IMG/VR virus record: IMGVR_UViG_3300021387_000087
Length of the DNA stretch: 64,000 nt
DNA from: a virus
Taxonomy: Duplodnaviria > Caudoviricetes
Strand: one strand, 5' to 3'
The stretch's first letter is position 1; each line of letters starts with the position of its first letter. Below the pieces are notes generated by a model that was given only the letters and a program-made list of their open reading frames with translations, was not told where the DNA came from and did no database searches. Shown here piece by piece: positions 3,991 through 58,971 of the stretch. A program made the translations under genes and the position numbers.

Positions 3991-4275
3991 TCATTCTAGA
4001 TTTCCTTTACTCATTTTATTCCAATCTTCCAATAACTCACCGCTCAAGTCATATATATAAAAGAATCTTGACCATGACCCAAAATCCTGAATAATCATTG
4101 GATTCCCATTTTTATCTTTATCAAAAATCCAATTATAATAATAAGATTTAAAATTGATTTCTTTTAAATATTGATTCTCTAGTTCAATCAATTCTTTAGA
4201 TGTATCAGCCTCACCATAATAGTCCAGTGTCTGGTCTCTCGTATTATATGCATTTCTTCCTATATATAACTTCAT
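3991..4275 (-). CDS. Hypothetical protein
   Basis: ORF overlapping the Gp157 stop codon, operon-like. Confidence 0.6.
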   Translation of the reverse strand: MKLYIGRNAYNTRDQTLDYYGEADTSKELIELENQYLKEINFKSYYYNWIFDKDKNGNPMIIQDFGSWSRFFYIYDLSGELLEDWNKMSKGNLE

Positions 4276-4766
4276 TTAATCCTTAGCCCCCTTGTCTGAA
4301 CCAGATGTGCCACACCATCAAGAGCAACGCCAGCTTTAAGGTCTTCCTTTAATAGCTTCTTGTCAACCGTAGGGTCAGCTGGTTTCAAATACTTCTTAGG
4401 AATTTTATCAATATCAACATCTACCACAACACTCGCAGGATTATTCTGAATATTGAAAGAGAAGAGTGGTGTCTTAATTTTTGTCTTACCCATCAATTCC
4501 ATGGCTCCTTGAAGAGATTTCTTCATACGGTCAGCTTTATGTTTAAAAACCTTTCCTTTTTCTGCAAATCGTTTAGATTCAGTATCACAAGCTTCAGCAT
4601 CGTGTTCAAGCTGTCTAATTAATTTTGCATAACCATCTGCTTTATCCTCAATAGCACCATCAAGTCCCTCAAGTGTATCTATAAAAACTTCCTCTTCGAT
4701 ATCTGGGTCTTCAGCCATTTCCATAAGCATCAGCCAGTCATTTGTAAGTTCGTACAATGTAGCCAT
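4272..4766 (-). CDS. Siphovirus Gp157 family protein
   Basis: MATLYELT start, IEDKADGYAKLI, KIKTPLFSFNIQNNPASV, VDKKLLKEDLKAG...LRIK. Confidence 0.88.
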   Translation of the reverse strand: MATLYELTNDWLMLMEMAEDPDIEEEVFIDTLEGLDGAIEDKADGYAKLIRQLEHDAEACDTESKRFAEKGKVFKHKADRMKKSLQGAMELMGKTKIKTPLFSFNIQNNPASVVVDVDIDKIPKKYLKPADPTVDKKLLKEDLKAGVALDGVAHLVQTRGLRIK

Positions 4767-5180: not shown

Positions 5181-5382
5181 TTCCCGTATTATCCTTTAAA
5201 CTATCCAATATTCTTCTCCGCATTCAGGACATATGACAGTTAAACCAACTGTCTCATCGGTTATCATATCTCTTACTCTTCTAACATCATTTACCGTATA
5301 AATAAAAACAAGACCGCAGTTTTTGCATTTCTTTTTGTGATTTTTAATTTTAATATCTATCATAATTTTAATATCTGTCATT

Positions 5383-6000
5383 TTATACCTCTTCATTAAT
5401 AATATTCATCTGACAAGACTTCATTGTCATCAATGCTACTCTATGAAGTTCTGGGGTGGTACCTGCGCAACACGATGCATCAATAGTGATTTCTGCTTCG
5501 GGGAATGCCTGACGAAGTGCAAAAGCATTAGAGACTACACAAATATCAGTGCAAACGCCTATCAGCTCAAATTCAAGGTCTTCTCCTTTATAATCCAAAG
5601 GAACATACATATCCAAAAATGAATTCAAAAGATCAACCACTGTTCTCCAAACATTACCCTCAATTGCGAAATTTCCTTTAACAATAGTATTGTATCCTTC
5701 TTTTCCTTTAATCCACGGATGTCGTCCAGTCGCATGAACAGTATCTAGAATATCTTTCACAATATCCAACCCTCTATTACTTTGACAATGCGGAACTGGT
5801 AAATAACGTCCTTCTCTTGTTTGCGGATAATCATCTTCATCATGCATATCCATCGTAAAAATTAAACGGTCATAATCTTTAACCTTAATCTTCTCAACGA
5901 CCTTTGGTACAATTGCCTGTGCTTCTGGAGTACCAAGAACGCCACTGATGAAATCATTTTGCATATCAATTACCATTAGAATTTTCTTTCTTTTGTTCAC
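5383..6000 (-). CDS. Isochorismatase-family cysteine hydrolase (nicotinamidase-like)
   Basis: VIDMQNDF, TMDMH, PHC and GVCTDICV motifs. Confidence 0.88.
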   Translation of the reverse strand: MNKRKKILMVIDMQNDFISGVLGTPEAQAIVPKVVEKIKVKDYDRLIFTMDMHDEDDYPQTREGRYLPVPHCQSNRGLDIVKDILDTVHATGRHPWIKGKEGYNTIVKGNFAIEGNVWRTVVDLLNSFLDMYVPLDYKGEDLEFELIGVCTDICVVSNAFALRQAFPEAEITIDASCCAGTTPELHRVALMTMKSCQMNIINEEV

Positions 6001-7363
6001 TTTTCTTTTTACTCCCTTCGTCTTCTTTAATAAAATTTTGTGACATCGCTATATTTCTAGCAGCATTAAAATCTGCATTAATATATTTTTGATTGCTATA
6101 AATTTTATGACAGATACACTCTGGATTGGTACAAATAAACTCTTTTTGCGTTTTCCGAAGTCCCCTTTCACCACAGACAGAACATGTCTGGGACGTGTAT
6201 TTTGGATTAATCTTTCTCACTTCAATCCCGTGTATAGCAGCCTTATACTTAATCTTTTCTTGTAAATCATAATAAGACCAATTCCGCAGAATCATTTTTG
6301 AATGTTCATCATCTTTTACATGACCATATTTATCACGACCAAAGCCCGACAAATCTTCTATATTAATATATTTTGCTCCATTCTTGACTGCAAAATCTAC
6401 TACTCTGCGACTAACCATATGAGAATATGTTTGGACAAAATTTTTCTCCCGCTTTTTCAAACGATCTAATGCACGAAGTTTTTTCTGTCTACCATGACCG
6501 CCTTTACTATCTTTCAATGCATGCTGTAAACGTCTTCTTTCATTCTGTATCTGAGTTCTAATTCGTAAGAACTCATCTGCGCTTCCAATAGCCAAACGTT
6601 TATAGTAGTCATTATTTAATGCGCACATTGCAGGAACCGCTTGCCCCAAGTCTACGCCTAATACGACATCTTCATTCAAAGCAGTTTCAACTTTTGGCAC
6701 TTCTAATGTAAGATTGATAATAATCTTTGTTCCTTTGATTTCTATTGTGCTACCACCAACTTTATATTCTTCTGTAAAAATTCGTTTAAAAACTTCCCGC
6801 TGTTCTTTACTACGATAAGGATTCCCAAATCGAAACTTAAAAGTAATATTGTTACAAAACTTAATAAGAACTTCTGGCTTCATATCATTTTCCAAAGCTT
6901 CAAAAAGTTTTGCTGGAGTTTCATAATTATGATAGATACCATTATCATCTTTTTTAGTGCCACGAAGTGCAACAAAATTTACATGTACAATTAAAGGATT
7001 GTTGCTTCTGTAAGTTGGTAATGAGATACGCCCATACATCAAACCCTTTTTACAAGCATTATCAAAATCTTGCTTAACTTTTCTACTTGCAGAAGCTGCA
7101 ATTGGTAGACCCACAGGAAATTTTATATCTTTTGTATATCCACTGCCCTTTTTACTATTGGTAACTCTCTGAAACAAATTATTTAATTCTTTTCTATCTT
7201 CCAATGACATTTCATAAGACTTTGCCATAAATAAATGAGATATATATTCATTCATAGCTTTATTTTGTGCTTCAATGCCCTGTTTTAACCATGTATATAC
7301 TCTATTAATTTCTTCTTTATCTCCAACTACTTGAAGTTCATATTTTCTTGTTAAATTTGGCAT
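5966..7363 (-). CDS. cas12f: Type V-F CRISPR effector Cas12f (TnpB-derived RuvC nuclease, 465 aa)
   Basis: RuvC-I GVDLG, RuvC-II NIEDL, ILRNWSYYDLQ, zinc finger TSQTCSVCG...CTNPEC, RuvC-III NADFNAARNIA; GGHGRQKKL motif typical of Firmicutes Cas12f1; adjacent array and anti-repeat. Confidence 0.85.
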   Translation of the reverse strand: MPNLTRKYELQVVGDKEEINRVYTWLKQGIEAQNKAMNEYISHLFMAKSYEMSLEDRKELNNLFQRVTNSKKGSGYTKDIKFPVGLPIAASASRKVKQDFDNACKKGLMYGRISLPTYRSNNPLIVHVNFVALRGTKKDDNGIYHNYETPAKLFEALENDMKPEVLIKFCNNITFKFRFGNPYRSKEQREVFKRIFTEEYKVGGSTIEIKGTKIIINLTLEVPKVETALNEDVVLGVDLGQAVPAMCALNNDYYKRLAIGSADEFLRIRTQIQNERRRLQHALKDSKGGHGRQKKLRALDRLKKREKNFVQTYSHMVSRRVVDFAVKNGAKYINIEDLSGFGRDKYGHVKDDEHSKMILRNWSYYDLQEKIKYKAAIHGIEVRKINPKYTSQTCSVCGERGLRKTQKEFICTNPECICHKIYSNQKYINADFNAARNIAMSQNFIKEDEGSKKKSEQKKENSNGN

Positions 7364-7399
7364 TATTAATTCCTTTTACTTTTATTTATACCCGTATAT

Positions 7400-7759
7400 A
7401 CTTCAATTCATACCATATATAAATTAAATCAATTTGATCCGGGATGATTCCATTGTAGACTATGCTTCAATTCACACCTATGTACAAATTGAATCCTTTT
7501 ACATAATAAAAGGGACAGCCCACAACCACGCTTCAATTCATATTTGTATACAAATTAAGTCATCGTCCAACCATAACGCGAATCATGGTCAATCTGCTTC
7601 AATTCACGTCTACGTACAAATTGAATCCTGCCTGATCCACCATCAGAGCATACTTTTCCCATACTTCAATTCATACCTGCCTACAAATTGAATCATAGAG
7701 AACAAATTTGCCTGACAAGGATGGTAAGCTTCAATTCATACCTACGCACAAATTGAATC
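7400..7759 (-). CRISPR. CRISPR array, 6 repeats (31-32 nt) and 5 spacers (33-35 nt)
   Basis: Repeats at 7400-7430 (degenerate), 7464-7495, 7530-7561, 7596-7627, 7663-7694, 7728-7759; the last reads GATTCAATTTGTGCGTAGGTATGAATTGAAGC on the minus strand. The most degenerate repeat is nearest cas12f, implying minus-strand transcription. Confidence 0.92.
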
Positions 7760-7794
7760 GGCAAATATCAACTATAACCCCTTATATATACGAC

Positions 7795-7945
7795 TTTTTT
7801 TATTCAATTTGTATGTATGATGATTTATTGAGTGGATCAACTCCCTCAACTTTCGGACGTGAAGCCGCCCGTAATACTTTAATAGTATTAATTTATGGTG
7901 CGAACATACTTAATATTCTCTGTTCACTTTATGTTCGCACTGTTT
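7795..7945 (-). ncRNA. Putative tracrRNA for Cas12f
   Basis: Anti-repeat at 7802-7813 (ATTCAATTTGTA on +), a second element at 7860-7865 complementary to the repeat 3' end (TGAAGC), and hairpins at 7872-7890 and 7898-7940. Boundaries are approximate. Confidence 0.7.
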
Positions 7946-9581: not shown

Positions 9582-10937
9582 TTAACTCCATTTAATTTTA
9601 ACATTATTTTTCTTGCATGCTTCCAACACTTTAGACCATTCATACTTTTTAAAAGTAGTAAGTACTCTAATAACGCCAGCATTATCACCCCAAGCACCCT
9701 TTCCAATTTCTTTTGCAAGAACATCAAGACTAACTTTCTTTCTGCGATTAACTTCATCAACGGCACCCTGACCCATTTGTCGATAATCTCCAAGCGCTTT
9801 AGCACGAGCGTCACCAGACCCAAAATATCCATTGATAATCGCGGCTGCAAAAGCATATTTCAAAGCCGTCTTATCTTTATTTAAAATATTAACTCGGTTC
9901 TGAATCGCTTTAGCATTATTGGCACCAAACAAAGCGGTAAGAGTATTACTGCGCTGAGGGTCTTTACCATAAGCACCAGCAAACACCTTGCATGCGTATG
10001 CCGTAGTTTGGATCAAATTAAGCTGCTTATTAATAGCCTTATACTTAATCCACTTAATCTTAGTAAGACTCTTTTCTGCATAAATAGAAGCATAACCTTC
10101 ATCATAAATATCACATGTAATATTTCCATACAAATAATTTCCAAGCACTCGGCAACCAGCTGTATTAAATCTATTAATAACCATTGTGCGCCCAGAACTT
10201 TTATAACTGCTATGATAATCCAACAGACCATACTTAGCGCCCATAGCTTTACAAAACGCTAAACTGCTTGCATCCTGATCTCCATGCCACTGTACATGTA
10301 CAAAATCAGGCTTTAGCGGATTCTTTCCATATCGTTCAATAAACTGATTATTCGCTTCTTTTGCGTTATCACCACCACCATAATAAGTCCATGTGCGACC
10401 ATGAATATCTGTCAGAGTAAACAACGTACCAAGAGATGTATTATTTACATAATGATGCGAATCTACTTCTTTCAGCTTCTTATAATTAGACCTAAAAATT
10501 ACATTGCATTTAATATTGCCAACTTTGAAACCATCACCTTCTGTAATATAATGAACATTCTCTTCACCACATTCTGTGATACACTGCTTGCGAATTTTAT
10601 CTATATAATTCGCACGACCTTTAAGAGAAGAGTGATACAAAAATGGCTCTTTAGATGGAAGATAAAAAGATTTTACTTTAAACGCCTTTGTATATCTTGT
10701 TGTATCCCCCATATGGTCTTCATGTGGATGTGTAAATACAACAGCATCAACTTCTCCAGATTTAATAATAGATTGATACGCTTTTAGTGCATCACAATCC
10801 GCACTACCAGTATCAATAATTACACAATGTGCAACATTACCTTTATCATCATATTCAATAATTGCAGTACTACTTCCCGACTCTTCAGAATGATACTTAA
10901 AAAGTGACGGTTGAAAAATACAAAATCTCTTACTCAT
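9582..10937 (-). CDS. Metallo-beta-lactamase-fold hydrolase (ComEC/Pce-like) with C-terminal CW_7-like repeats
   Basis: IIDTG, THPHEDHMG, NNTS, GGD and QWHG motifs; three repeats of the type G-x-(Y/F/W)-G...R...L at the C-terminus. Confidence 0.75.
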   Translation of the reverse strand: MSKRFCIFQPSLFKYHSEESGSSTAIIEYDDKGNVAHCVIIDTGSADCDALKAYQSIIKSGEVDAVVFTHPHEDHMGDTTRYTKAFKVKSFYLPSKEPFLYHSSLKGRANYIDKIRKQCITECGEENVHYITEGDGFKVGNIKCNVIFRSNYKKLKEVDSHHYVNNTSLGTLFTLTDIHGRTWTYYGGGDNAKEANNQFIERYGKNPLKPDFVHVQWHGDQDASSLAFCKAMGAKYGLLDYHSSYKSSGRTMVINRFNTAGCRVLGNYLYGNITCDIYDEGYASIYAEKSLTKIKWIKYKAINKQLNLIQTTAYACKVFAGAYGKDPQRSNTLTALFGANNAKAIQNRVNILNKDKTALKYAFAAAIINGYFGSGDARAKALGDYRQMGQGAVDEVNRRKKVSLDVLAKEIGKGAWGDNAGVIRVLTTFKKYEWSKVLEACKKNNVKIKWS

Positions 10938-47474: not shown

Positions 47475-48140
47475 ATGATTGTTGGACTAATCATTATTCT
47501 GGTTTTTCTTTTTATATATTTTTATACACAGATGTGTAATCTGAATAGTAAGACGAACGCCATCAAAAAAGCGATGGATGAAGGAAAAGAAACGTATTAT
47601 GATTCAACAGATGGATTTCTTCATTGGACAAAAAACGGAGAAAAGGTTATTGATTGTGTTTGGGGATATGCCGAAAATAATGACGCAATTGTTGGAGATC
47701 AGGTTTTAATAGGGGTAAAAAGTCATCGTGTTTATAAAAATTATACAAAAGAAAAATTTAAATATCATATACAAACTCAAATTGATTGTGGGTATTGTTG
47801 GTGCTATGAACGACATACTTATAATGGAGAATTTCGTGGCGATCTGGCATTAAGGTATCATATGAAAGACAAGTATTTCTATTACCTCGTAAAAGAAGAA
47901 CACAAAAGCAGTAATTATGACAATAATAGATTGTATCTTTATTGTGAAAAAAATACTGGAGAAAGAAGGAAAATCTCATTTGAAGAATATATTCAATTAG
48001 GTGGTAGCGAACTTATCGAAATTGAATACAAAAAGAAAAATGGATATACAGTAACCACATTTCATTCAAAATCTAACAATAATAATCAAAATATTAATGC
48101 TTTTGATTACAATAATAAATACTTAAATGGAGGTAAATAA
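47475..48140 (+). CDS. Hypothetical protein with N-terminal membrane anchor
   Basis: Hydrophobic N-terminus; AAGGAG RBS. Confidence 0.65.
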   Translation: MIVGLIIILVFLFIYFYTQMCNLNSKTNAIKKAMDEGKETYYDSTDGFLHWTKNGEKVIDCVWGYAENNDAIVGDQVLIGVKSHRVYKNYTKEKFKYHIQTQIDCGYCWCYERHTYNGEFRGDLALRYHMKDKYFYYLVKEEHKSSNYDNNRLYLYCEKNTGERRKISFEEYIQLGGSELIEIEYKKKNGYTVTTFHSKSNNNNQNINAFDYNNKYLNGGK

Positions 48141-49224
48141 GATGACAGGCAAAGAAATCCAAGTGGAAAAATTTGAAAGATTGACTGATGAACTCATTGA
48201 AAAAAACCCTAGTTATGCAGACGCGCTTGAGGGTTTTAGATATTGGTCAGATGATCAATCATGTAGGACTGTATATTATTATTTAATTTACATTGTTAAC
48301 TTTTTAAAAGAAACCAATAAGAATATTTGTGACCTTAAACTTGATGATTGGACACGATATGCAGCTAAACAAAAGAAAATGTCTTCTAGTAATCAAATAG
48401 CTAAATATTCTGCTGTTAAACGTTTTGCAGAATATCTTGAAGCAAGTGAACGGTTAGAAAATAATTTTATGGCAAAAGCAAAGCGCCCAAAATTTGTTGA
48501 AACGAAAGAACAAATAGACAAAAGGGAGCAAAAAATTCTTAGCCCCGCAGAAATTCAGAAGGTAATTAAAGATATTGAATACGGCATCAGTAATCATAGA
48601 AAATTATGGTTTCAAGAAGAATATAGATCCAGAGATATGGCTATAGTTCTGCTCTTTCTTAGCACAGGAATTCGTGGCTCTGCATTACAATATTTAAATG
48701 TAGAAGATATTAATTTAGATGAAGGGATTATTACAGTAACAGACAAAGGCGATAAGGTAAACGAACATAGCCTTCCAGATACCACAATTATTATTCTTGA
48801 AAAATGGTTACTTAAAAGAGAAGAATTACTTAAACAGAGAAATATAAAAAATGAACCAGCACTCTTTATCTCTAATCAAAGAAAGAGAATGAGTTATTCT
48901 TCCATTAATAATGTTGTGTGTAAATATTGTAGTAATGTTACTGGCAGACAAATTACGCCACATGTTTTACGTGCTACATATGGAACTATTCTTTATAACA
49001 AAACTCATGATATTGAATTTGTTAGACAACAGATGAATCATAACAGCATTGAAACAACTAAACGTTATATTCGTGGTAATGGAAAAGAGAACCGTAAAAA
49101 AGCAGCTGATATTATGGGTGGAGTTATTGATCGTGGCACTAAAAAAAGCGAAAGTTTATTTGAAGCTGAAGACGAGGAGTTAGTTGTTACAGAAATTAAA
49201 GATGACGAGGAGAACGAATACTAA
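48127..49224 (+). CDS. Tyrosine recombinase (XerC/D-integrase family)
   Basis: STGIR, DKG, HVLRATYGT, MNH...TTKRY catalytic set. Confidence 0.92.
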   Translation: MEVNKMTGKEIQVEKFERLTDELIEKNPSYADALEGFRYWSDDQSCRTVYYYLIYIVNFLKETNKNICDLKLDDWTRYAAKQKKMSSSNQIAKYSAVKRFAEYLEASERLENNFMAKAKRPKFVETKEQIDKREQKILSPAEIQKVIKDIEYGISNHRKLWFQEEYRSRDMAIVLLFLSTGIRGSALQYLNVEDINLDEGIITVTDKGDKVNEHSLPDTTIIILEKWLLKREELLKQRNIKNEPALFISNQRKRMSYSSINNVVCKYCSNVTGRQITPHVLRATYGTILYNKTHDIEFVRQQMNHNSIETTKRYIRGNGKENRKKAADIMGGVIDRGTKKSESLFEAEDEELVVTEIKDDEENEY

Positions 49225-51491: not shown

Positions 51492-51566
51492 TGGGGTATG
51501 GTGAAGCGGTTTAACACACTGCGCTTTGACCGCAGGATTCCGAGAGTTCGAATCTCTCTACCCCAG
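51492..51566 (+). tRNA. tRNA-Gln(TTG)
   Basis: Cloverleaf; CTGCG-CTTTGAC-CGCAG; GTTCGAATC. Confidence 0.9.
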
Positions 51567-51569
51567 TCT

Positions 51570-51653
51570 GGGACGCATACAGCAAAAAGTAAATAATCTA
51601 ATCAAGAATAAAAAAGCATTATGTTTTTCAATGGCATTCCTCCTAGCGTCCTG
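51570..51653 (+). ncRNA. Stand-alone ACAGCAA-module RNA A
   Basis: GGGACGC-AT-ACAGCAA ... GCGTCCT-G. Confidence 0.7.
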
Positions 51654-51678
51654 TATAAAAGAAAATAAAATTAAATAA

Positions 51679-51799
51679 CCACCCATAGTCTAATTGGTTA
51701 AAACGCTTAGCATAACAAATCATGATTGTGATTTTTACAGCAAATTATTTGCGTTCTCCTGTCCCGAGAGAGTTGATGGTTCGAGTCCATCTGGGTGGG
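51679..51799 (+). tRNA. tRNA-Asp(GTC)-like RNA with 48-nt ACAGCAA-module insertion (51708-51755)
   Basis: Acceptor CCACCCA/TGGGTGG, D arm, CT|CTC-CTGTCCC-GAGAG, T arm GATGG-TTCGAGT-CCATC. Confidence 0.8.
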
Positions 51800-51803
51800 T
51801 TTT

Positions 51804-51862
51804 GGGACTCATACAGCATAAAACAGACTGATAATCTGCTTGCCATGAAATGGCGAGTCCTG
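51804..51862 (+). ncRNA. Stand-alone module RNA B with Ile(GAT)-like anticodon arm
   Basis: GGGACTC-AT-ACAGCAT ... CAGA-CTGATAA-TCTG ... GAGTCCT-G. Confidence 0.72.
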
Positions 51863-51869
51863 TTAATAT

Positions 51870-51990
51870 CTGTGCCTTAGTTCAGTGGTAGAACACTAAT
51901 GCAAAATGAATCATGAATGTGGTTCTCACAGCAAATATTTTGCTTCTATTGTGGATAGAGAGGTCGTAGGTTCGAGTCCTACAGGCACAG
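51870..51990 (+). tRNA. tRNA-His(GTG)-like RNA with 48-nt ACAGCAA-module insertion (51898-51945)
   Basis: CTGTGCCT/AGGCACAG, D arm GTTC/GAAC, CT|CTA-TTGTGGA-TAGAG, T arm GTAGG-TTCGAGT-CCTAC. Confidence 0.8.
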
Positions 51991-51996
51991 CTGACT

Positions 51997-52065
51997 GTGA
52001 CACTCACAGCAACAACAATATTCTACACCGTTAATCTGGGGACTGTAGAAACCCCAAGTGTCATG
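51997..52065 (+). ncRNA. Stand-alone module RNA C in the leader of the DUF2828-like gene
   Basis: GTGACAC-TC-ACAGCAA ... GTGTCAT-G directly before the RBS. Confidence 0.68.
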
Positions 52066-52085
52066 AAAGGAAAAGGTATTTTATT

Positions 52086-53594
52086 ATGAATTTTGCACAG
52101 GCGATTAAAAATGAAACAAAATGGACAAGGACTGAAAACGGAGCTGTTGCACTGAAGACAACAGATGATGCGCTGCTTGACCTCTTTGGTACAATTGGTG
52201 CTTTGAGAAATGCAGACGAAGCACGCATTACATCACTTTTTGAGGAAGCGTATAACGCAAATCCTCTGTATGCTACAAAGATTCTTTTCTACGCAAGAGA
52301 TATTCGTGGAGATGAAGAGACTCAGGGTCTTGGAGAGAGACGTGTATTCAGAATTATTCTGAAATATTGTGCACTGCATCATCCTAAGGCAATTCGTCCC
52401 AATCTTGATTTGATTGGTGCCTATGGTCGCTACGATGACCTGTATGAACTGATCGGCACTCCTCTGGAAAATGAGATGTGGACTGCTATGAAGAAGCAGT
52501 TTGAAGAAGACCTTGATAATATGTCAAAAGGGAACGCAATCTCTCTTCTGGCTAAGTGGATCAAGACTGCTGATGCTTCTTCACCTAAGACAAGGGCGCT
52601 TGGTAAGTTGACCGCACAGAAACTTGGATATGATGTATATAACTTCAAGCGTATCGTGCGTGCAATGCGTAAGCAGATTGGCATTGTTGAAGCACTGATG
52701 TCTACTGGACGTTGGGATGAGATTAAGTATTCTGAAGTTCCGTCCAGAGCAATGCTTATTTACAGAAATGCTTTTAGAAAGCATGATGAAGAGCGTTTTA
52801 ATCAGTTCGCACAGAAAGCTGTTACTGGAGAAGAGAAAATTAATTCTGGTACACTGTTTCCTTACGATATTGTAAGTAGATATGCTAGTCGTAATTGGTA
52901 TGATGGAAAATGGTATACTGGCTCTAATTTGAATGAAACAGAAGAGAATGTTCTTCAAGCACAGTGGGATCAGCTTCCTAATTATGTAGACGAAGGTACT
53001 AATGCTCTGGTCATTGCAGATACTTCTGGTTCTATGAGTGGGCGTCCAATGGATACAGCTGTTAGTTTGGCAATCTATTTTGCTCAGAGAAACCATGGAG
53101 CATTTAAAAATCTGTGGATGAATTTCAGCTCTCGTCCTTCTTATCAGCAAATTAAAGGGAAGACACTGAAGCAGATTCTTAATAATATTAATTATAGTAA
53201 TTGGGGTAATAGTACCAATTGCAAGGCTGCTTTTGAAATGATTCTAGATACGGCTATTCAGTATCATATTCCTCAGGAAGATATGCCCAAGGCATTGGTT
53301 ATTATTTCTGATATGGAATTTGATTACTGTGGTGGTGAAAATTGGACGTTCTATGATCAGATGAGGAGTGAATTCGCTAGAAATGGTTATGAGATTCCTT
53401 CTGTTATCTTTTGGGATGTCGAGAGCCGTCATGATGTATTCCACGCAGATAAGAATCGCAAGGGAGTTATCCTTGTCAGTGGTCAGAGTGCTGGAACATT
53501 TAAGAATTTGATCGGAGCAATTGGTATGAGTCCTATGGATTTCGTAATGCAGGTTGTCAACGCAAAACGATATGAACCGATTACGGTCGGATAA
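52086..53594 (+). CDS. DUF2828-like protein (TROVE/Ro60-like helical region + vWA domain)
   Basis: RTENGA, FYARDIRG..GLGERRVF, YGRYDDL, LLAKW, YSEVPSRAM; vWA MIDAS DTSGSM, ST, ISDMEFD. Confidence 0.85.
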   Translation: MNFAQAIKNETKWTRTENGAVALKTTDDALLDLFGTIGALRNADEARITSLFEEAYNANPLYATKILFYARDIRGDEETQGLGERRVFRIILKYCALHHPKAIRPNLDLIGAYGRYDDLYELIGTPLENEMWTAMKKQFEEDLDNMSKGNAISLLAKWIKTADASSPKTRALGKLTAQKLGYDVYNFKRIVRAMRKQIGIVEALMSTGRWDEIKYSEVPSRAMLIYRNAFRKHDEERFNQFAQKAVTGEEKINSGTLFPYDIVSRYASRNWYDGKWYTGSNLNETEENVLQAQWDQLPNYVDEGTNALVIADTSGSMSGRPMDTAVSLAIYFAQRNHGAFKNLWMNFSSRPSYQQIKGKTLKQILNNINYSNWGNSTNCKAAFEMILDTAIQYHIPQEDMPKALVIISDMEFDYCGGENWTFYDQMRSEFARNGYEIPSVIFWDVESRHDVFHADKNRKGVILVSGQSAGTFKNLIGAIGMSPMDFVMQVVNAKRYEPITVG

Positions 53595-53599
53595 TTCAT

Positions 53600-54290
53600 A
53601 TAGTGGATACAGACACTTAAAATCTGTATCATAAGCGCCGATGGACGCTATATATTCCATTCAATTATGCGTCATGATCGTGACGCATGCACAGCAACGC
53701 ACACAAGATTGGGGAACGTGAGTACGGGTGAAGATATTAAGATCTTTGCTTTAAGGGTGCCAGAAATGGCTTCTAAGTACAATTCAAAGGAACTGGTGCC
53801 CGCACTGGTTCGCCGTATACTCGGCTTTAATCGAGCCAAATGCTCGGTTAACAGGAAACCGGAACCTGTACAAAAAACACACACTGGGCATATAATTGGC
53901 GGCATGCACGGAACAGCCTAAGAACCGCAAGGGACATATAGTTATTCAGATTTCATTGGTTTTACTAATCAGAGTAACATTACTCAGATTTCATTGGTTT
54001 TACTAATCAGAATAGCTATATAGCGCATCACATCGAAGATCCCTAGACATGCAAGTGATGTAAACCGCAGAATGGATGATGCGGCATAAAAATGATCAAC
54101 CATCCTGTATGAGTAGGGGATAGGAAGAGTGAATCCGGCTACATACAGTGAGACCTAAAGCCCCTGATGTGAATGGGACTATGCGTGATTGTTTTCAGAC
54201 TAAAACACATCTAAAACGCTAGGCAAAACAGGCTTTGCACATCACATGTATCTAGCCTGTGTACACTTCTCTGTGATGTGCATTATTTAA
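53600..54290 (+). ncRNA. Candidate long structured ncRNA(s) with an ACAGCAA module near the 5' end
   Basis: No credible CDS; ATGCGTCAT-GATC-GTGACGCAT-GC-ACAGCAA at 53667-53697; many stems; duplicated 28-nt unit. Confidence 0.5.
53946..54011 (+). repeat. Two identical 28-nt direct repeats, period 38
   Basis: TCAGATTTCATTGGTTTTACTAATCAGA at 53946 and 53984. Confidence 0.9.
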
Positions 54291-54425
54291 AAGGTGCTAC
54301 AAAACAATTATAAATTATATGAATTTGACATTGAGAGTCTATATAATAAATAAGGTAAGAGTAGTAGTTAAATGGAGTTTGATGAACAGCCTTTTTAAAG
54401 TAATGTGATATAGAGAAGTTAATAT

Positions 54426-54516
54426 GCCACTATAAGCCTAATTGGTAAGGCAGTAGTCTTGAAAACTACCAGTAATCGTGATGAGCGATGTTCCTGTTCG
54501 AGTCGGGATAGTGGCG
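54426..54516 (+). tRNA. tRNA-Ser(TGA)
   Basis: GTAGT-CTTGAAA-ACTAC; long variable arm. Confidence 0.88.
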
Positions 54517-54611
54517 TATAATTCAGGCTTGAGTAAGAGGACTCTGTAAGTAGTTGATAGTGGAACAATAACCTGAATTAAAGAATGTATAATTAAAAGG
54601 TGGTGTGACAT

Positions 54612-55145
54612 GTGGAATATAAGAAAGAACCTGTCAAAGGATATGAAGAATATCAGGTAGACACTAATGGAATTGTTTATGGTAAAAATGGTAAGCCATT
54701 AAAATATTCGTTAAATCATAAAGGATATTGTATTATAAACTTTTCAATTAATGGTCAAGTAAAAGGATTTGCGATACATACATTAGTAGCTAAACAGTTT
54801 ATTCCTAATAACGATCCATCAAAATGGCAAGTAAATCATAAAGACGGAAATAAAGAAAATAATAATATTAGCAACCTTGAATGGGTCACTCCTGAAGAAA
54901 ACATAAAACATTCAAAAGAGGTGCTAGGAAATAATAATCTTGGTGCTAATAGTAGTCAAGCAAAACCTATAAAAGGTGTCAGTAAAAAAGATGGCACCGA
55001 AATATATTTTGATGCAATGTCAGATGGCGCACGTTTTTTAGCAAGAAAACACAATATTAAATTTATACATGCTAAATGTTCGTTGTGGCGTGCTTTAAGT
55101 GGTTGTAGAAAAAGTTATAAAGGATATTATTGGCAATATGTCTAA
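54612..55145 (+). CDS. NUMOD4-type HNH homing endonuclease
   Basis: VKGYEEYQVDTNG, HTLVAKQFI, VNHKDGNKENNNISNLEWVT. Confidence 0.9.
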   Translation: MEYKKEPVKGYEEYQVDTNGIVYGKNGKPLKYSLNHKGYCIINFSINGQVKGFAIHTLVAKQFIPNNDPSKWQVNHKDGNKENNNISNLEWVTPEENIKHSKEVLGNNNLGANSSQAKPIKGVSKKDGTEIYFDAMSDGARFLARKHNIKFIHAKCSLWRALSGCRKSYKGYYWQYV

Positions 55146-55153
55146 TAATAAAT

Positions 55154-55237
55154 GCCCCCTTGGTGGAACAGGAAGACACGCCGCATTTAAGCTGCGGTTC
55201 CGCAACAGGAGTGAGAGTTCAAATCTCTCAGGGGGTA
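55154..55237 (+). tRNA. tRNA-Leu(TAA)
   Basis: CCGCA-TTTAAGC-TGCGG; long variable arm. Confidence 0.88.
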
Positions 55238-55320
55238 TTCACAAAACAGAGATGAACGGAAAGCATGACTGTTTTGTACTGAAATATGCTCACATCTATA
55301 TGATGTATAAAACTTTCCAA

Positions 55321-55385
55321 GGGACACTTACAGCAAACTATAACAGAACAAGACTTGAAATCTTCTTTCTCTTAATAGTGTCCTG
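55321..55385 (+). ncRNA. Stand-alone module RNA E with Ser(TGA)-like anticodon arm
   Basis: GGGACAC-TT-ACAGCAA ... AAGA-CTTGAAA-TCTT ... GTGTCCT-G. Confidence 0.72.
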
Positions 55386-55396
55386 TAATTAAATAT

Positions 55397-55512
55397 GCCG
55401 ACCTTAGCTCAATGGTAGAGCACGTATGAATGGATTATGTTTGTAATCCTAACAGCAATTACTTCTTCCACTGGTAATGGCGTTGTTATTGGTTCGAATC
55501 CAATAGGTCGGC
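55397..55512 (+). tRNA. tRNA-Thr(GGT)-like RNA with 43-nt ACAGCAA-module insertion (55425-55467)
   Basis: GCCGACCT/AGGTCGGC, D arm GCTC/GAGC, CG|CCA-CTGGTAA-TGGCG, T arm ATTGG-TTCGAAT-CCAAT. Confidence 0.8.
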
Positions 55513-55517
55513 TTTCT

Positions 55518-55602
55518 GGGATTCGCACAGCAAAATAAAATGGATAAACAAAAATTCTGCAAAAATTTGAGTGAGTGGGTTCAAATCCCTAAACGAATCC
55601 TG
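55518..55602 (+). ncRNA. Stand-alone module RNA F with Cys(GCA)-like anticodon arm and T-loop remnant
   Basis: GGGATTC-GC-ACAGCAA ... AAATT-CTGCAAA-AATTT ... GGG-TTCAAAT-CCC ... GAATCCT-G. Confidence 0.72.
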
Positions 55603-55679
55603 TTTTGTAACTATAGCAGTGTCATGAATTATTTAAAAACGAAAAATATAAAACAAAACATTTAAAAAAGGTAAAACAA

Positions 55680-56048
55680 ATGAAAATCAACTGGTTAGAC
55701 GAATCGCCTCTGACTTATGAAGAAGCAATGGAATTGTTAAGTCATTCGCACGAGAAGCGTCTGGAAATGGAAGATAAAAATAAATGGGATGCTTATGTAA
55801 ATGATTTTACGTTCTGGACTTTTCTCAATGATACTTACGGTTATATGCTTGATGAAGTTAAAAAAGAGGTTGATGATTTTTATTTAAAATATTCTTATCC
55901 AAAGGTTAGAGAAATAATTGATTGGGAAATAATTTTAAATAGAAGTGATGAACTTGCAAAAGATATTTTAAAGCAAGAAGAAAAAGAAAATATTTGGGAA
56001 ATCATAGAAGATTGGTGGATAACATTATTTATAGCATTATATCTTTAA
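55680..56048 (+). CDS. Hypothetical protein
   Basis: ORF with AAGG RBS inside the tRNA cluster. Confidence 0.6.
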   Translation: MKINWLDESPLTYEEAMELLSHSHEKRLEMEDKNKWDAYVNDFTFWTFLNDTYGYMLDEVKKEVDDFYLKYSYPKVREIIDWEIILNRSDELAKDILKQEEKENIWEIIEDWWITLFIALYL

Positions 56049-56085
56049 TTAATTTAGGTCATGTGAAATTTTCTATAAATAGATT

Positions 56086-56152
56086 GGGACGCTTACAGCA
56101 AAGTTATTTGGGAATAGACTTTTAATCTATGTAACCGAAATAAAGCGTCCTG
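56086..56152 (+). ncRNA. Stand-alone module RNA G with Lys(TTT)-like anticodon arm
   Basis: GGGACGC-TT-ACAGCAA ... ATAGA-CTTTTAA-TCTAT ... GCGTCCT-G. Confidence 0.75.
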
Positions 56153-56190
56153 TTTAAAAGAAGTTAAGTTGTGCACAACTATTAAAAAGT

Positions 56191-56263
56191 ATGTCTCTAG
56201 TGTCAGCGGATAGCACGGTGGTCTCCAAAACCACAAGGCAGAGTTCGAATCTCTGGGGGCATG
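56191..56263 (+). tRNA. tRNA-Trp(CCA)
   Basis: GTGGT-CTCCAAA-ACCAC; T arm CAGAG/CTCTG. Confidence 0.88.
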
Positions 56264-56405
56264 TTTAATACAAAAATCAATGGACGCATTGGTAGATGTA
56301 TTAACGCTTATCAAAGGATATCGCTAAGGGACGAAGATTAAAAGAGTGACTGAGGGTGGAGCAGATTGATCGACTGCTAACAGGTGAAAAAGTATGATAA
56401 GTGTC

Positions 56406-56476
56406 CGCACTATGGTGTAAAGGTAGCATACTTCCGATATTAGGAAGAGGTCTGCGTTCAATTCGTAGTGGTGCAA
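56406..56476 (+). tRNA. tRNA-like gene with non-canonical anticodon loop (nominal TAT)
   Basis: Full cloverleaf, but the loop GATATTA lacks U33 and purine 37; C1-A72 mismatch. Confidence 0.6.
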
Positions 56477-56726
56477 TCTGCGCAGAAGATAGGAGACCAA
56501 ATGATACCAATGCTCTAGTTTGGTGATGTGGGGTACACGGTAAACCTTAATCCGTGATGCCATAAAGGAGAGAAAAAATGAGTATTAAAGATAAAATGGT
56601 TAATGCAAAGACAACAGATTGGCTTACAAAAGATATTTCTGATTTAGAACTTAAATGGATTTGTTGGCTTGCTCGTTTCTTTGCCACTATTGAGTTAAGT
56701 ATTAAAAAAATATTAAATAAAATAAA

Positions 56727-56797
56727 CGAGGTCGTGGTGTAATGGTAGCACACCACATTTGGGATGTGGGAGAACAGTTCGAGTCTGGCGACTTCGA
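56727..56797 (+). tRNA. tRNA-Pro(TGG)
   Basis: CCACA-TTTGGGA-TGTGG; weak T stem. Confidence 0.75.
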
Positions 56798-56985
56798 CTT
56801 GAGGTTGCGCGTCTCAACCATCTTCAGAGAGTGTCAGTGTAAGTCTGTGTAATGTTGTCCTGCCAAAATCCAATATAGGGATATACCTCTTGAAAAAACT
56901 TAGAACGGTTTAGTGGATGTGGCTGTTCGATACTCGTGGCAGTTTTGTTGTAAGGGTGTTTTTCAAGCGAGTTTAATATTAATAC

Positions 56986-57060
56986 GCTCCTGTAGCTCAG
57001 TTGGTTTAGAGCAATAGATTTTTAATCTATTGGTCAGGGATTCGAGTTCCCTCAGGGGCA
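56986..57060 (+). tRNA. tRNA-Lys(TTT)
   Basis: ATAGA-TTTTTAA-TCTAT; cloverleaf. Confidence 0.9.
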
Positions 57061-57325
57061 TTAAAAGGAGGTATTACTATGTTAAATCCACTTTCTTTAC
57101 AATTTAACCAAACATGTACCGGAAAGCAAATTAATGACTGGTGTCGTTATCAAATTGAGAATAATGGATCGCATTATAAGGATGCGGTCAGGCTTCTGAA
57201 GAAAAATTTTAAAGATGATAGAACATATTATAAAACTATTAAAGCAAAAACTGCTGGATGTGGCGAAGCTGATGTAATTGAATTTAGATTGGTCGGTAAA
57301 CCGCATATTCCTTGGTGGTTAAAAA

Positions 57326-57667
57326 ATGATTAAAGAAAATACATATGATTTGTTTGCTGGAGAAGAATTAAAAATAGCAGAAAAGATCCAGCAACGGCGT
57401 TATCAAATGCTCACCCATTCTTGTTTATATTATCATTTAAATAAAAATATAATATCTGACAAACAGTGGGATACATGGGCAAGAGAACTTAAAGATTTGC
57501 AGAAACAGTATCCTGATATTTCAGCCAAGGTAACGCTGTACAATGAGTTTAAGGACTGGGATGCAAGCACAGGGGCATTCCTACCGATTGAGGAACCATG
57601 GGTTGTGATGATGGCAAAAAAACTATTAGCTGTGATAATTAATGTTTCAATTCAAAGGGGAAAATAA
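57326..57667 (+). CDS. Stand-alone LigA N-terminal (subdomain Ia)-like protein
   Basis: HSCLYY...IISDKQWD...L..L...YP resembles the NAD-ligase Ia motif YY....ISD..YD. Confidence 0.6.
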   Translation: MIKENTYDLFAGEELKIAEKIQQRRYQMLTHSCLYYHLNKNIISDKQWDTWARELKDLQKQYPDISAKVTLYNEFKDWDASTGAFLPIEEPWVVMMAKKLLAVIINVSIQRGK

Positions 57668-57672
57668 TTTAA

Positions 57673-58014
57673 ATGACTATTAATGAACAAACACTACAAG
57701 AATTGGCGAAACAATTTGGTCTAGCATTAGATTGGAGTAACAAAAATATTATTCCTTATCTTCAAAATTTGGCACAAAGAGTAATTACATACGAATTTCG
57801 TTCGTCTATTTTTTGGATTGTAATTGGAGCAATTTTTATTTTAGTTGGCGCTATTACATTATTTTTAGCCATACATAATGACGATGGATGGTTTATAATT
57901 ACGATTTTTGTATGGATGATAGGAATACTTATTATTGGAAAGCAAATAAATGACATTATTTTATGTGGGACATTACCTGAAAAAATTTTATTAAACTACA
58001 TACAATCAAATTAA
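57673..58014 (+). CDS. Membrane protein
   Basis: Two hydrophobic helices. Confidence 0.65.
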   Translation: MTINEQTLQELAKQFGLALDWSNKNIIPYLQNLAQRVITYEFRSSIFWIVIGAIFILVGAITLFLAIHNDDGWFIITIFVWMIGILIIGKQINDIILCGTLPEKILLNYIQSN

Positions 58015-58258
58015 AATTAAAGAGGATTAAATAATGAAAACAATTGAAGAAGTTAAAATAGAATGTAAATATGCAGACGTGATGACTAAAGAGGAGTTCC
58101 TTCAAGAAGTTAGTAATGGTTGTATTAATTCATTTGACGGATGTGGTTACTTTCATGATGGTGAAAAAGAAACAAATATAAGTGTTTGGGATAGATCGCT
58201 AACATGGGATAACATAAAAAAATATCCTTATGTTTGTTGGTATAACAAATAAGATTAA

Positions 58259-58331
58259 GGCTCTATAGTCTAATGGTTAGGACGCTGGCTTTTCATGCCA
58301 GAAAAGGTGAGTTCGATCCTCCCTAGAGCTA
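58259..58331 (+). tRNA. tRNA-Glu(TTC)
   Basis: CTGGC-TTTTCAT-GCCAG. Confidence 0.85.
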
Positions 58332-58332
58332 T

Positions 58333-58403
58333 GCCACTATCTGCCAATGGTAGGCGCGCTGATTTGTAATCAGTCAATCCCAGTTCGAATCTGGGTGGTG
58401 GCT
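58333..58403 (+). tRNA. tRNA-Thr(TGT)
   Basis: GCTGA-TTTGTAA-TCAGT; T arm CCCAG/CTGGG. Confidence 0.85.
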
Positions 58404-58700
58404 CTGGCATAAAGTGCCATTCTCAAAGCTGAAACGATATATGCTTTGAGCGGTTCCGCAGCAGTACCGTTAAACCTGCAAACGTGCATGTGCGGTTATG
58501 TATTATATTATCTTAATGATTTATCGGAAGGTTTGCCAGTTCGTTATGCACAGCGAATTGACAGGCTGGAAGATGCAAAACCGTGTTTCTCGCATTGCTT
58601 TTGGATTGAGGCGATGGAAGTGGTGTTGGCAACGCAAACCAACTAACAGTGTTTAGGCGTTGTGTAGAGAAGAACGTGATGTTGAGAAACATGGAATTGT

Positions 58701-58774
58701 GCTCTCGTAGCCCAACTGGAAGAGGCAACCGATTTAGGGTCGATTCAGTAAGAGTCCGAATCTCTTCGAGAGTA
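58701..58774 (+). tRNA. tRNA-Leu(TAG), short variable loop
   Basis: ACCGA-TTTAGGG-TCGAT; acceptor GCTCTCG/CGAGAGT. Confidence 0.75.
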
Positions 58775-58897
58775 TGATGCACACAATTACCAATTCAGGA
58801 AGCATCACAAGTGGCGTTGAATTGGCGTGAGGTCTTACGAAAGTAGACGATGAATAAATATATGGCTGATTGTGTTATATCATCAGCCATATTATAA

Positions 58898-58971
58898 GGA
58901 CTCTTAGCGCAATTGGTCAGCGCATCTGGCTCATAACCAGACGGTTCAGTGTTCGAGTCACTGAGAGTCCA
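58898..58971 (+). tRNA. tRNA(CAT), Ile2 or Met
   Basis: TCTGG-CTCATAA-CCAGA; GGACTCT acceptor resembles Firmicutes Ile2. Confidence 0.88.

Follow-up and report, generated by a model that had tools for sequence, protein, structure and literature searches.

A phage-borne Cas12f locus with a predicted tracrRNA inside a type I-C-style CRISPR leader

A compact CRISPR effector that is encoded by a phage next to its own array, with no evident adaptation genes, raises two connected questions: what kind of guided nuclease it is, and by which route its array would be supplied with new guides. We addressed these questions for a minus-strand locus (5966-7945) in a 64,000-nucleotide stretch of viral DNA (IMG/VR record IMGVR_UViG_3300021387_000087), the whole of which is referred to below as the window. 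The combined evidence indicates that the Cas12f locus of this phage is genuine and apparently functional, and that it has a tracrRNA and no adaptation genes. The single nuclease considered alone is ordinary; what is new here, as judged from sequence, is the location of the tracrRNA inside a type I-C-style leader of the Cas12f array. A limited search of the literature did not bring up any Cas12f array reported to combine an I-C leader with an embedded tracrRNA.

The window appears to represent a large gut-type phage, possibly temperate, a reading that fits the presence of a tyrosine integrase (48127-49224, plus strand), a cluster of eight tRNA genes (51492-58971, plus strand) and a Mu Gam-like gene (4272-4766, minus strand). 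Further phage markers are Sak4, methyltransferases and a metallo-beta-lactamase-fold protein with endolysin-type CW_7 cell-wall-binding repeats (9582-10937, minus strand), and a megablast search of the first 20 kb of the window against known phages gave no match. The end of cas12f is overlapped by 35 nt by an isochorismatase-family gene (5383-6000, minus strand; PF00857, 7e-13). A preliminary description of this DNA had given the minus-strand order as tracrRNA, array, cas12f and nicotinamidase; the order holds, whereas the last name is a family-level call only (PF00857). The PncA model scores 0.004 on this product, far under its cut-off; a role as a nicotinamidase in NAD salvage is conceivable.

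The cas12f gene itself (5966-7363, minus strand) encodes 465 aa and is assigned to the Cas12f1 (former V-U3) type by combined ORF, profile, PDB, Foldseek and tree evidence. The intact D/E/D triad claimed for it earlier was confirmed, D238 (GVDLG), E336 (INIED) and D431 (NADFNAARNIA) being invariant in a family alignment of 21 sequences, as are the four cysteines of a CxxC...CxxxxC zinc finger (C394/C397/C411/C416); in the PDB search both the RuvC and the zinc-finger motifs align to Al3Cas12f. At full length the protein matches the PADLOC models of Cas12u3 (8.5e-107) and Cas12f (3e-103), and Pfam detects a Cas12f1-like TNB domain (4e-17). Sequence matches to Cas12f entries of the PDB span 3e-65 to 1e-32 (Al3Cas12f, 3e-65; CnCas12f1, 2.5e-63; RhCas12f, 7e-48, full length; also OsCas12f), as against 0.24 for ISDra2 TnpB, with a sequence identity to solved members of ~25-31%. 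An AlphaFold (AF2) model derived from 21 members of the family (pLDDT 72) has only Cas12f structures as its top Foldseek matches, with TnpB behind. Narrower or neighboring assignments were tried and rejected: Cas12f2 membership falls short at 98 bits against the NCBIfam NF049972 cut-off of 450, and the match to the Cas12p 'hacker' family in the PDB is weak and covers the C-terminal part only. The gene is under purifying selection, as follows from a dN/dS of 0.095 (dS 0.86) against L082, a metagenome relative that is 88% identical.

Upstream of the gene lies a CRISPR array (7400-7759, minus strand) of six repeats of 32 nt (31 nt in the terminal, decayed R6) and five spacers of 33-35 nt, with a repeat period of 65-67 nt. 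With boundaries fixed from the leader-repeat junction, the repeats occupy 7728-7759 (R1), 7663-7694 (R2), 7596-7627 (R3), 7530-7561 (R4), 7464-7495 (R5) and 7400-7430 (R6), all on the minus strand; the sequence is conserved at their ends (GATTCAATTTGT and TGAATTGAAG) and variable in their centres, and all six differ from each other (74-91% identity). The preliminary claim that the array stops 36 nt short of the start codon is accurate, R6 ending at 7400 and the ATG standing at 7363; in the minus-strand segment between them (7364-7399) are the AAAGGA ribosome-binding site and what is left of a decayed repeat.

A structured tracrRNA with an anti-repeat is predicted upstream of the array (7800-7890, minus strand). 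It would consist of a scaffold of three hairpins (7872-7890, 7854-7871 and 7827-7850, all within 7827-7890), the last two of which are conserved and covary across 25 loci, followed by an anti-repeat tail (7800-7826) whose core, TACAAATTGAAT (7802-7813), shows complementarity to positions 2-13 of the repeat. The surrounding region (7790-7945) folds into four hairpins and then an unpaired tail that holds TACAAATTGAAT (z = -5.4). Duplexes of this tail with R1, R2, R3 and R5 reach -18 to -21 kcal/mol, values equalled by 0-1 of 300 shuffles, and pairing is weaker for R4 (-15.5 kcal/mol) and R6 (-12.5 kcal/mol). Compensatory changes were found in 6 of the 12 consensus tracr pairs over the 25 loci; the tracr region of L082, 85.6% identical to that of the window over 180 nt, also carries a compensatory change in one stem. 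The same scaffold form (ACGG-stem-CCGAA-GTGAGG-loop-CACTCA) adjoins arrays in dozens of related loci. No Rfam family matches the tracrRNA or the repeats, and a sigma-70 scan of the leader yielded no convincing promoter.

The scaffold occupies the stretch between two further elements of the leader, namely a 43-nt hairpin (GTGCGAAC...GTTCGCAC; 7898-7940, minus strand) located 138 nt before R1, and the leader-repeat junction motif ATATTTGCC (7760-7768, minus strand), where the leader end reads ATTTGCC and host I-C leaders end in (A/T)TTTGC(T/G/A) at the same place. In 1.1 Mb of collected locus DNA, every occurrence of this hairpin precedes an array of the window clade (the window, L082, L003 and L081), and in these four the junction motif starts 132-153 nt after it. 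Bacterial copies were found in Roseburia sp. 1XD42-69 (two), Anaerotignum sp. MSJ-24 (one) and seven further genomes out of 120 sampled Lachnospiraceae. All 16 assessable genomic copies from Lachnospiraceae and Anaerotignum stand 117-149 nt before an I-C-type array with 31-33-nt repeats of the form GTCGC...GTGGATTGAAAT, a period of 64-68 nt and the leader end TTTGC(T/G/A), and the hairpin-led array of Anaerotignum follows a complete Cas3c-Cas5c-Cas8c-Cas7c-Cas4c-Cas1c operon. Judging by these genomes, the 43-nt hairpin is a hallmark of the leaders that precede type I-C CRISPR arrays in Anaerotignum and the Lachnospiraceae; its general form, GTGCGAAY-NNN-AAGTGAACA...RTTCGCAC, marks type I-C leaders in the Lachnospiraceae genomes L178-L193 and in Anaerotignum (L177). 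As a separate observation, on contig C8 of Anaerotignum sp. MSJ-24 (L087, L176) a complete I-C system with an array of 50 repeats is separated by ~19 kb from a Cas12f relative, which has an I-C-like array of 15 repeats; the repeats of the two arrays share their ends and are otherwise distinct.

The window array agrees with such host arrays in its leader hairpin, the distance of the hairpin to R1, the junction motif, the 32-nt repeats and the 33-35-nt spacers. It departs from them in the repeat consensus (GTCGC...GTGGATTGAAAT), of which it keeps the length and only the 3' end, ATTGAAGC; an AT-rich palindrome stands where the I-C repeat has its 5' GTCGC and GC-rich central hairpin. In L003, which belongs to the same clade, the repeat is still of the canonical I-C type. 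The ORFs scanned in the window included no I-C cas genes.

The preliminary description had stated that cas1, cas2, cas4 and transposase genes are missing, which stands for Cas1, Cas4 and a transposase among ORFs of at least 200 aa in the window, a size range above that of Cas2, which would lie among the smaller ORFs. Four related phage records, among them one that is 100% complete at 160.7 kb, likewise yielded no Cas1. Because an I-C leader is combined with this lack of Cas1 in the window and the related records, new spacers would probably be added by Cas1-Cas2-Cas4 enzymes that a type I-C host supplies, this host being itself probably a member of the Lachnospiraceae. The earlier general suggestion that such systems borrow the adaptation machinery of their hosts thereby gains concrete support from the I-C-type leader of the window array. 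There is a precedent in type IV-A3 systems, for which a published account describes spacers acquired in trans from type I-E. Since the window repeat has neither the 5' GTCGC nor the GC-rich central hairpin of I-C, I-C integrases may no longer accept it. Among 401 Lachnospiraceae genomes no host array with the window repeat was found, just single chance matches.

The window protein has thousands of relatives, hundreds of them in IMG/VR on phage contigs of 50-380 kb, and the bacterial matches are mostly from Lachnospiraceae and other gut or rumen Clostridia. Two relatives, P0001 and P0002, stand at 94% and 85%. Dozens of large phage contigs contain the tracr-array-cas12f arrangement. Across the 81 relatives available with a complete gene and both flanks, an array of at least three repeats occurs within 1.5 kb in 54 and the scaffold motif in 47. 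L082 has the layout of the window and seven spacers with none in common, so the window lineage has turned over its array; in another pair of relatives (L014 and L016) a trailer spacer is shared and the leader ends differ, which is the pattern that polarised acquisition would leave. Sister clades of the window group have 36-nt repeats of the form GTTTTAGA...AAAAC and spacers of ~30 nt. As a family, these proteins add a natural series of Cas12f enzymes (425-480 aa) with many members and defined guide RNAs. The earlier proposal of a candidate compact editor survives in a generic sense only, given that characterised Cas12f enzymes of 415-497 aa exist already.

Other arrangements occur within the family. 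Two tracr-plus-array modules flank a single cas12f in L081 (2560-2960 and 4430-4760), L003 (2640-2990 and 4440-4860) and L030 (2630-2960 and 4300-4600); the arrays of L081 are of different kinds, I-C-like and II-A-like, and each is accompanied by an anti-repeat that fits it. In L004, L005, L006 and L025 (~4290-4390) the scaffold directly follows the cas12f stop with no array behind it, which resembles a fused omega-RNA-like guide within the Cas12f family.

Searches for the targets of the five spacers returned no match in the window with as many as 6 mismatches allowed, in the collected related loci, in GenBank phages or in plasmids; exact 24-mers of all five gave nothing in IMG/VR, nor did one spacer each against JGI metagenomes and GTDB genomes, and the L082 spacers likewise gave no match. 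This count of zero protospacers for the window spacers in all of these searches speaks against the explanation that we favor, as do the divergence of all six repeats, the weaker pairing of R4 and R6, the lost I-C repeat features, the failure to find a host array with the window repeat in the 401 genomes and the leader scan without a clear promoter. Nor do these searches support the earlier proposal of an inter-phage or anti-host weapon. By inference, the targets are most likely competing mobile elements. Elsewhere in the family, a spacer at ~5220-5290 in the 22-repeat Clostridium array of L100 matches positions 1414-1450 of the same locus, ~3 kb away, at 35/37 and may be a self-target.

Taken together, we consider it probable that the locus encodes a CRISPR-Cas12f system of type V-F1 (former V-U3 branch) carried by the phage, in which a tracr/crRNA-guided DNA cutter works from an I-C array chassis loaded by host I-C enzymes. 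A minus-strand transcript would yield both the tracrRNA (hairpins, then the anti-repeat tail) and a pre-crRNA from the six repeats and five spacers; the anti-repeat would pair with each repeat, and the RNAs would presumably be processed. By analogy with solved Cas12f structures, the 465-aa protein would bind the tracr:crRNA duplex, probably as a dimer, and its RuvC site would, in line with established Cas12f biology, cut PAM-flanked double-stranded DNA matching the spacer. The chassis would be of type I-C in its leader hairpin, junction, 32-nt repeats ending in ATTGAAGC and 33-35-nt spacers, with the tracr scaffold inserted within the leader, and a type I-C host would most likely supply the Cas1-Cas2-Cas4 that writes new spacers.

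The part of this explanation that concerns the nuclease has two competitors. The protein could instead be an IS200/IS605-type TnpB with an omega-RNA, unrelated to the nearby repeats, as might be suggested by a match to the general NCBIfam guided_TnpB model (9e-47), a Pfam OrfB_IS605 score just under its cut-off and the name transposase given to relatives by some sources. This we hold to be extremely improbable: Cas12f profiles score far higher, the window contains a single copy of the gene with no TnpA among its neighbors, and the guide scaffold lies upstream with the array and not at the 3' end of the gene. The phylogeny against Cas12f1 and TnpB called for in the preliminary description points the same way, placing the window with L081 and L003 (support 98) in a 59-row clade, 39 of its rows array-linked, that is split with a support of 98 from 20 array-less TnpBs (Moraxellaceae, cyanobacteria and others); the grouping with IS-associated TnpB that would have contradicted a Cas12f system is therefore not observed. 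Alternatively, the protein may be a Cas12f that has lost nuclease activity or been repurposed as an RNA-guided repressor or transcription factor, since such Cas12f1 derivatives are known (dCas12f entry 9n9c); the invariance of the D/E/D residues and zinc finger across the family and the absence of a sigma-factor partner nearby make this very improbable.

The remaining competitors concern the array. An active effector could be served by a fixed, old set of five guides directed at a few conserved targets or used in regulation, with no acquisition and with the I-C leader as a relic. The repeats speak for such an array: every one of them differs, R1-R5 showing 15 transitions and 1 transversion relative to their consensus, nearly all within the central 12 nt, the I-C 5' GTCGC is lost and the terminal repeat is decayed. 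This transition-biased divergence argues against very recent spacer acquisition in the window phage, as an array that acquires regularly should hold its repeats uniform. Nevertheless, we rate a fixed array as unlikely in view of the turnover relative to L082 and of the conservation of hairpin, spacing and junction in the window, L082, L003 and L081, where a relic would be expected to decay. The array might also mainly feed the I-C Cascade of the host, as a phage mini-array hijacking interference, with Cas12f a mere neighbor or with crRNAs serving both. The I-C-type leader and repeat/spacer geometry would suit this arrangement, and the repeat 3' ATTGAAGC resembles the I-C handle; yet the anti-repeat fits the window repeat and in relatives varies in concert with the repeat, the tracr scaffold accompanies cas12f in the 47 loci noted above, and in the window repeat the handle bases lie inside a stem and the GC-rich hairpin of I-C is absent. 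Cas5c recognises this GC-rich hairpin of I-C repeats. We regard a principal role in feeding Cascade as quite improbable.

Returning to a Cas12f system on a host-loaded chassis, a broader evolutionary scenario, to which we assign about even chances, is that the phage Cas12f lineage captured host array chassis (I-C in the window clade, II-A-like in sister clades) and threaded its tracrRNA into the captured leader, so that host enzymes would write the guides and the anti-repeat would co-evolve with the captured repeat class. This would provide a concrete, testable way for a minimal phage CRISPR system to stay adaptive without Cas1/Cas2. A class 2 effector would thereby read an array that can be filled by a class 1 (I-C) host machine, and the I-C leader points to an I-C-bearing Lachnospiraceae host.

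Among known systems, the closest in effector are the type V-F1 Cas12f1 proteins (CnCas12f1, Al3Cas12f, RhCas12f, AsCas12f1 and SpCas12f1), which are like that of the window in size (415-500 aa), in their WED/REC, split RuvC and zinc finger, in tracrRNA dependence, in the lack of adaptation genes and in Clostridia/Bacilli hosts; V-U3 systems in general are known to lack such genes. The window differs from them in its large-phage carrier, in a tracr and array placed directly upstream and ending at the ribosome-binding site, and in an I-C leader enclosing the tracr. The existence of phage-borne miniature type V systems, mentioned in the preliminary description, is well founded in the literature, which lists Cas12j/CasPhi, Cas12l/Caslambda, the Cas12p 'hacker', virus-borne Cas14j/k and V-F1/V-U3-like systems. 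They share with the window a phage carrier, small arrays, the lack of Cas1/Cas2 and a presumed role in mobile-element competition, whereas Cas12j, Cas12l and Cas12p belong to a different family (weak PDB matches from 1.9e-8 for Cas12p to 0.025) and the window protein would use a tracrRNA. Type IV-A3 systems and huge-phage arrays sharing host repeats resemble the window in having an effector without its own adaptation module that relies on a leader and repeats compatible with another system; in the window, as deduced from sequence, a Cas12f of class 2 would be combined with an I-C leader of class 1. Finally, the I-C arrays of Lachnospiraceae and Anaerotignum have the 43-nt hairpin equally far from the first repeat, a TTTGC junction and, at a period of ~66 nt, 32-nt repeats that end in ATTGAA(A/G)(T/C), and from these canonical arrays the window differs in having no I-C cas genes, an AT-rich palindrome for GTCGC and the GC-rich hairpin, and a tracr scaffold in its leader.
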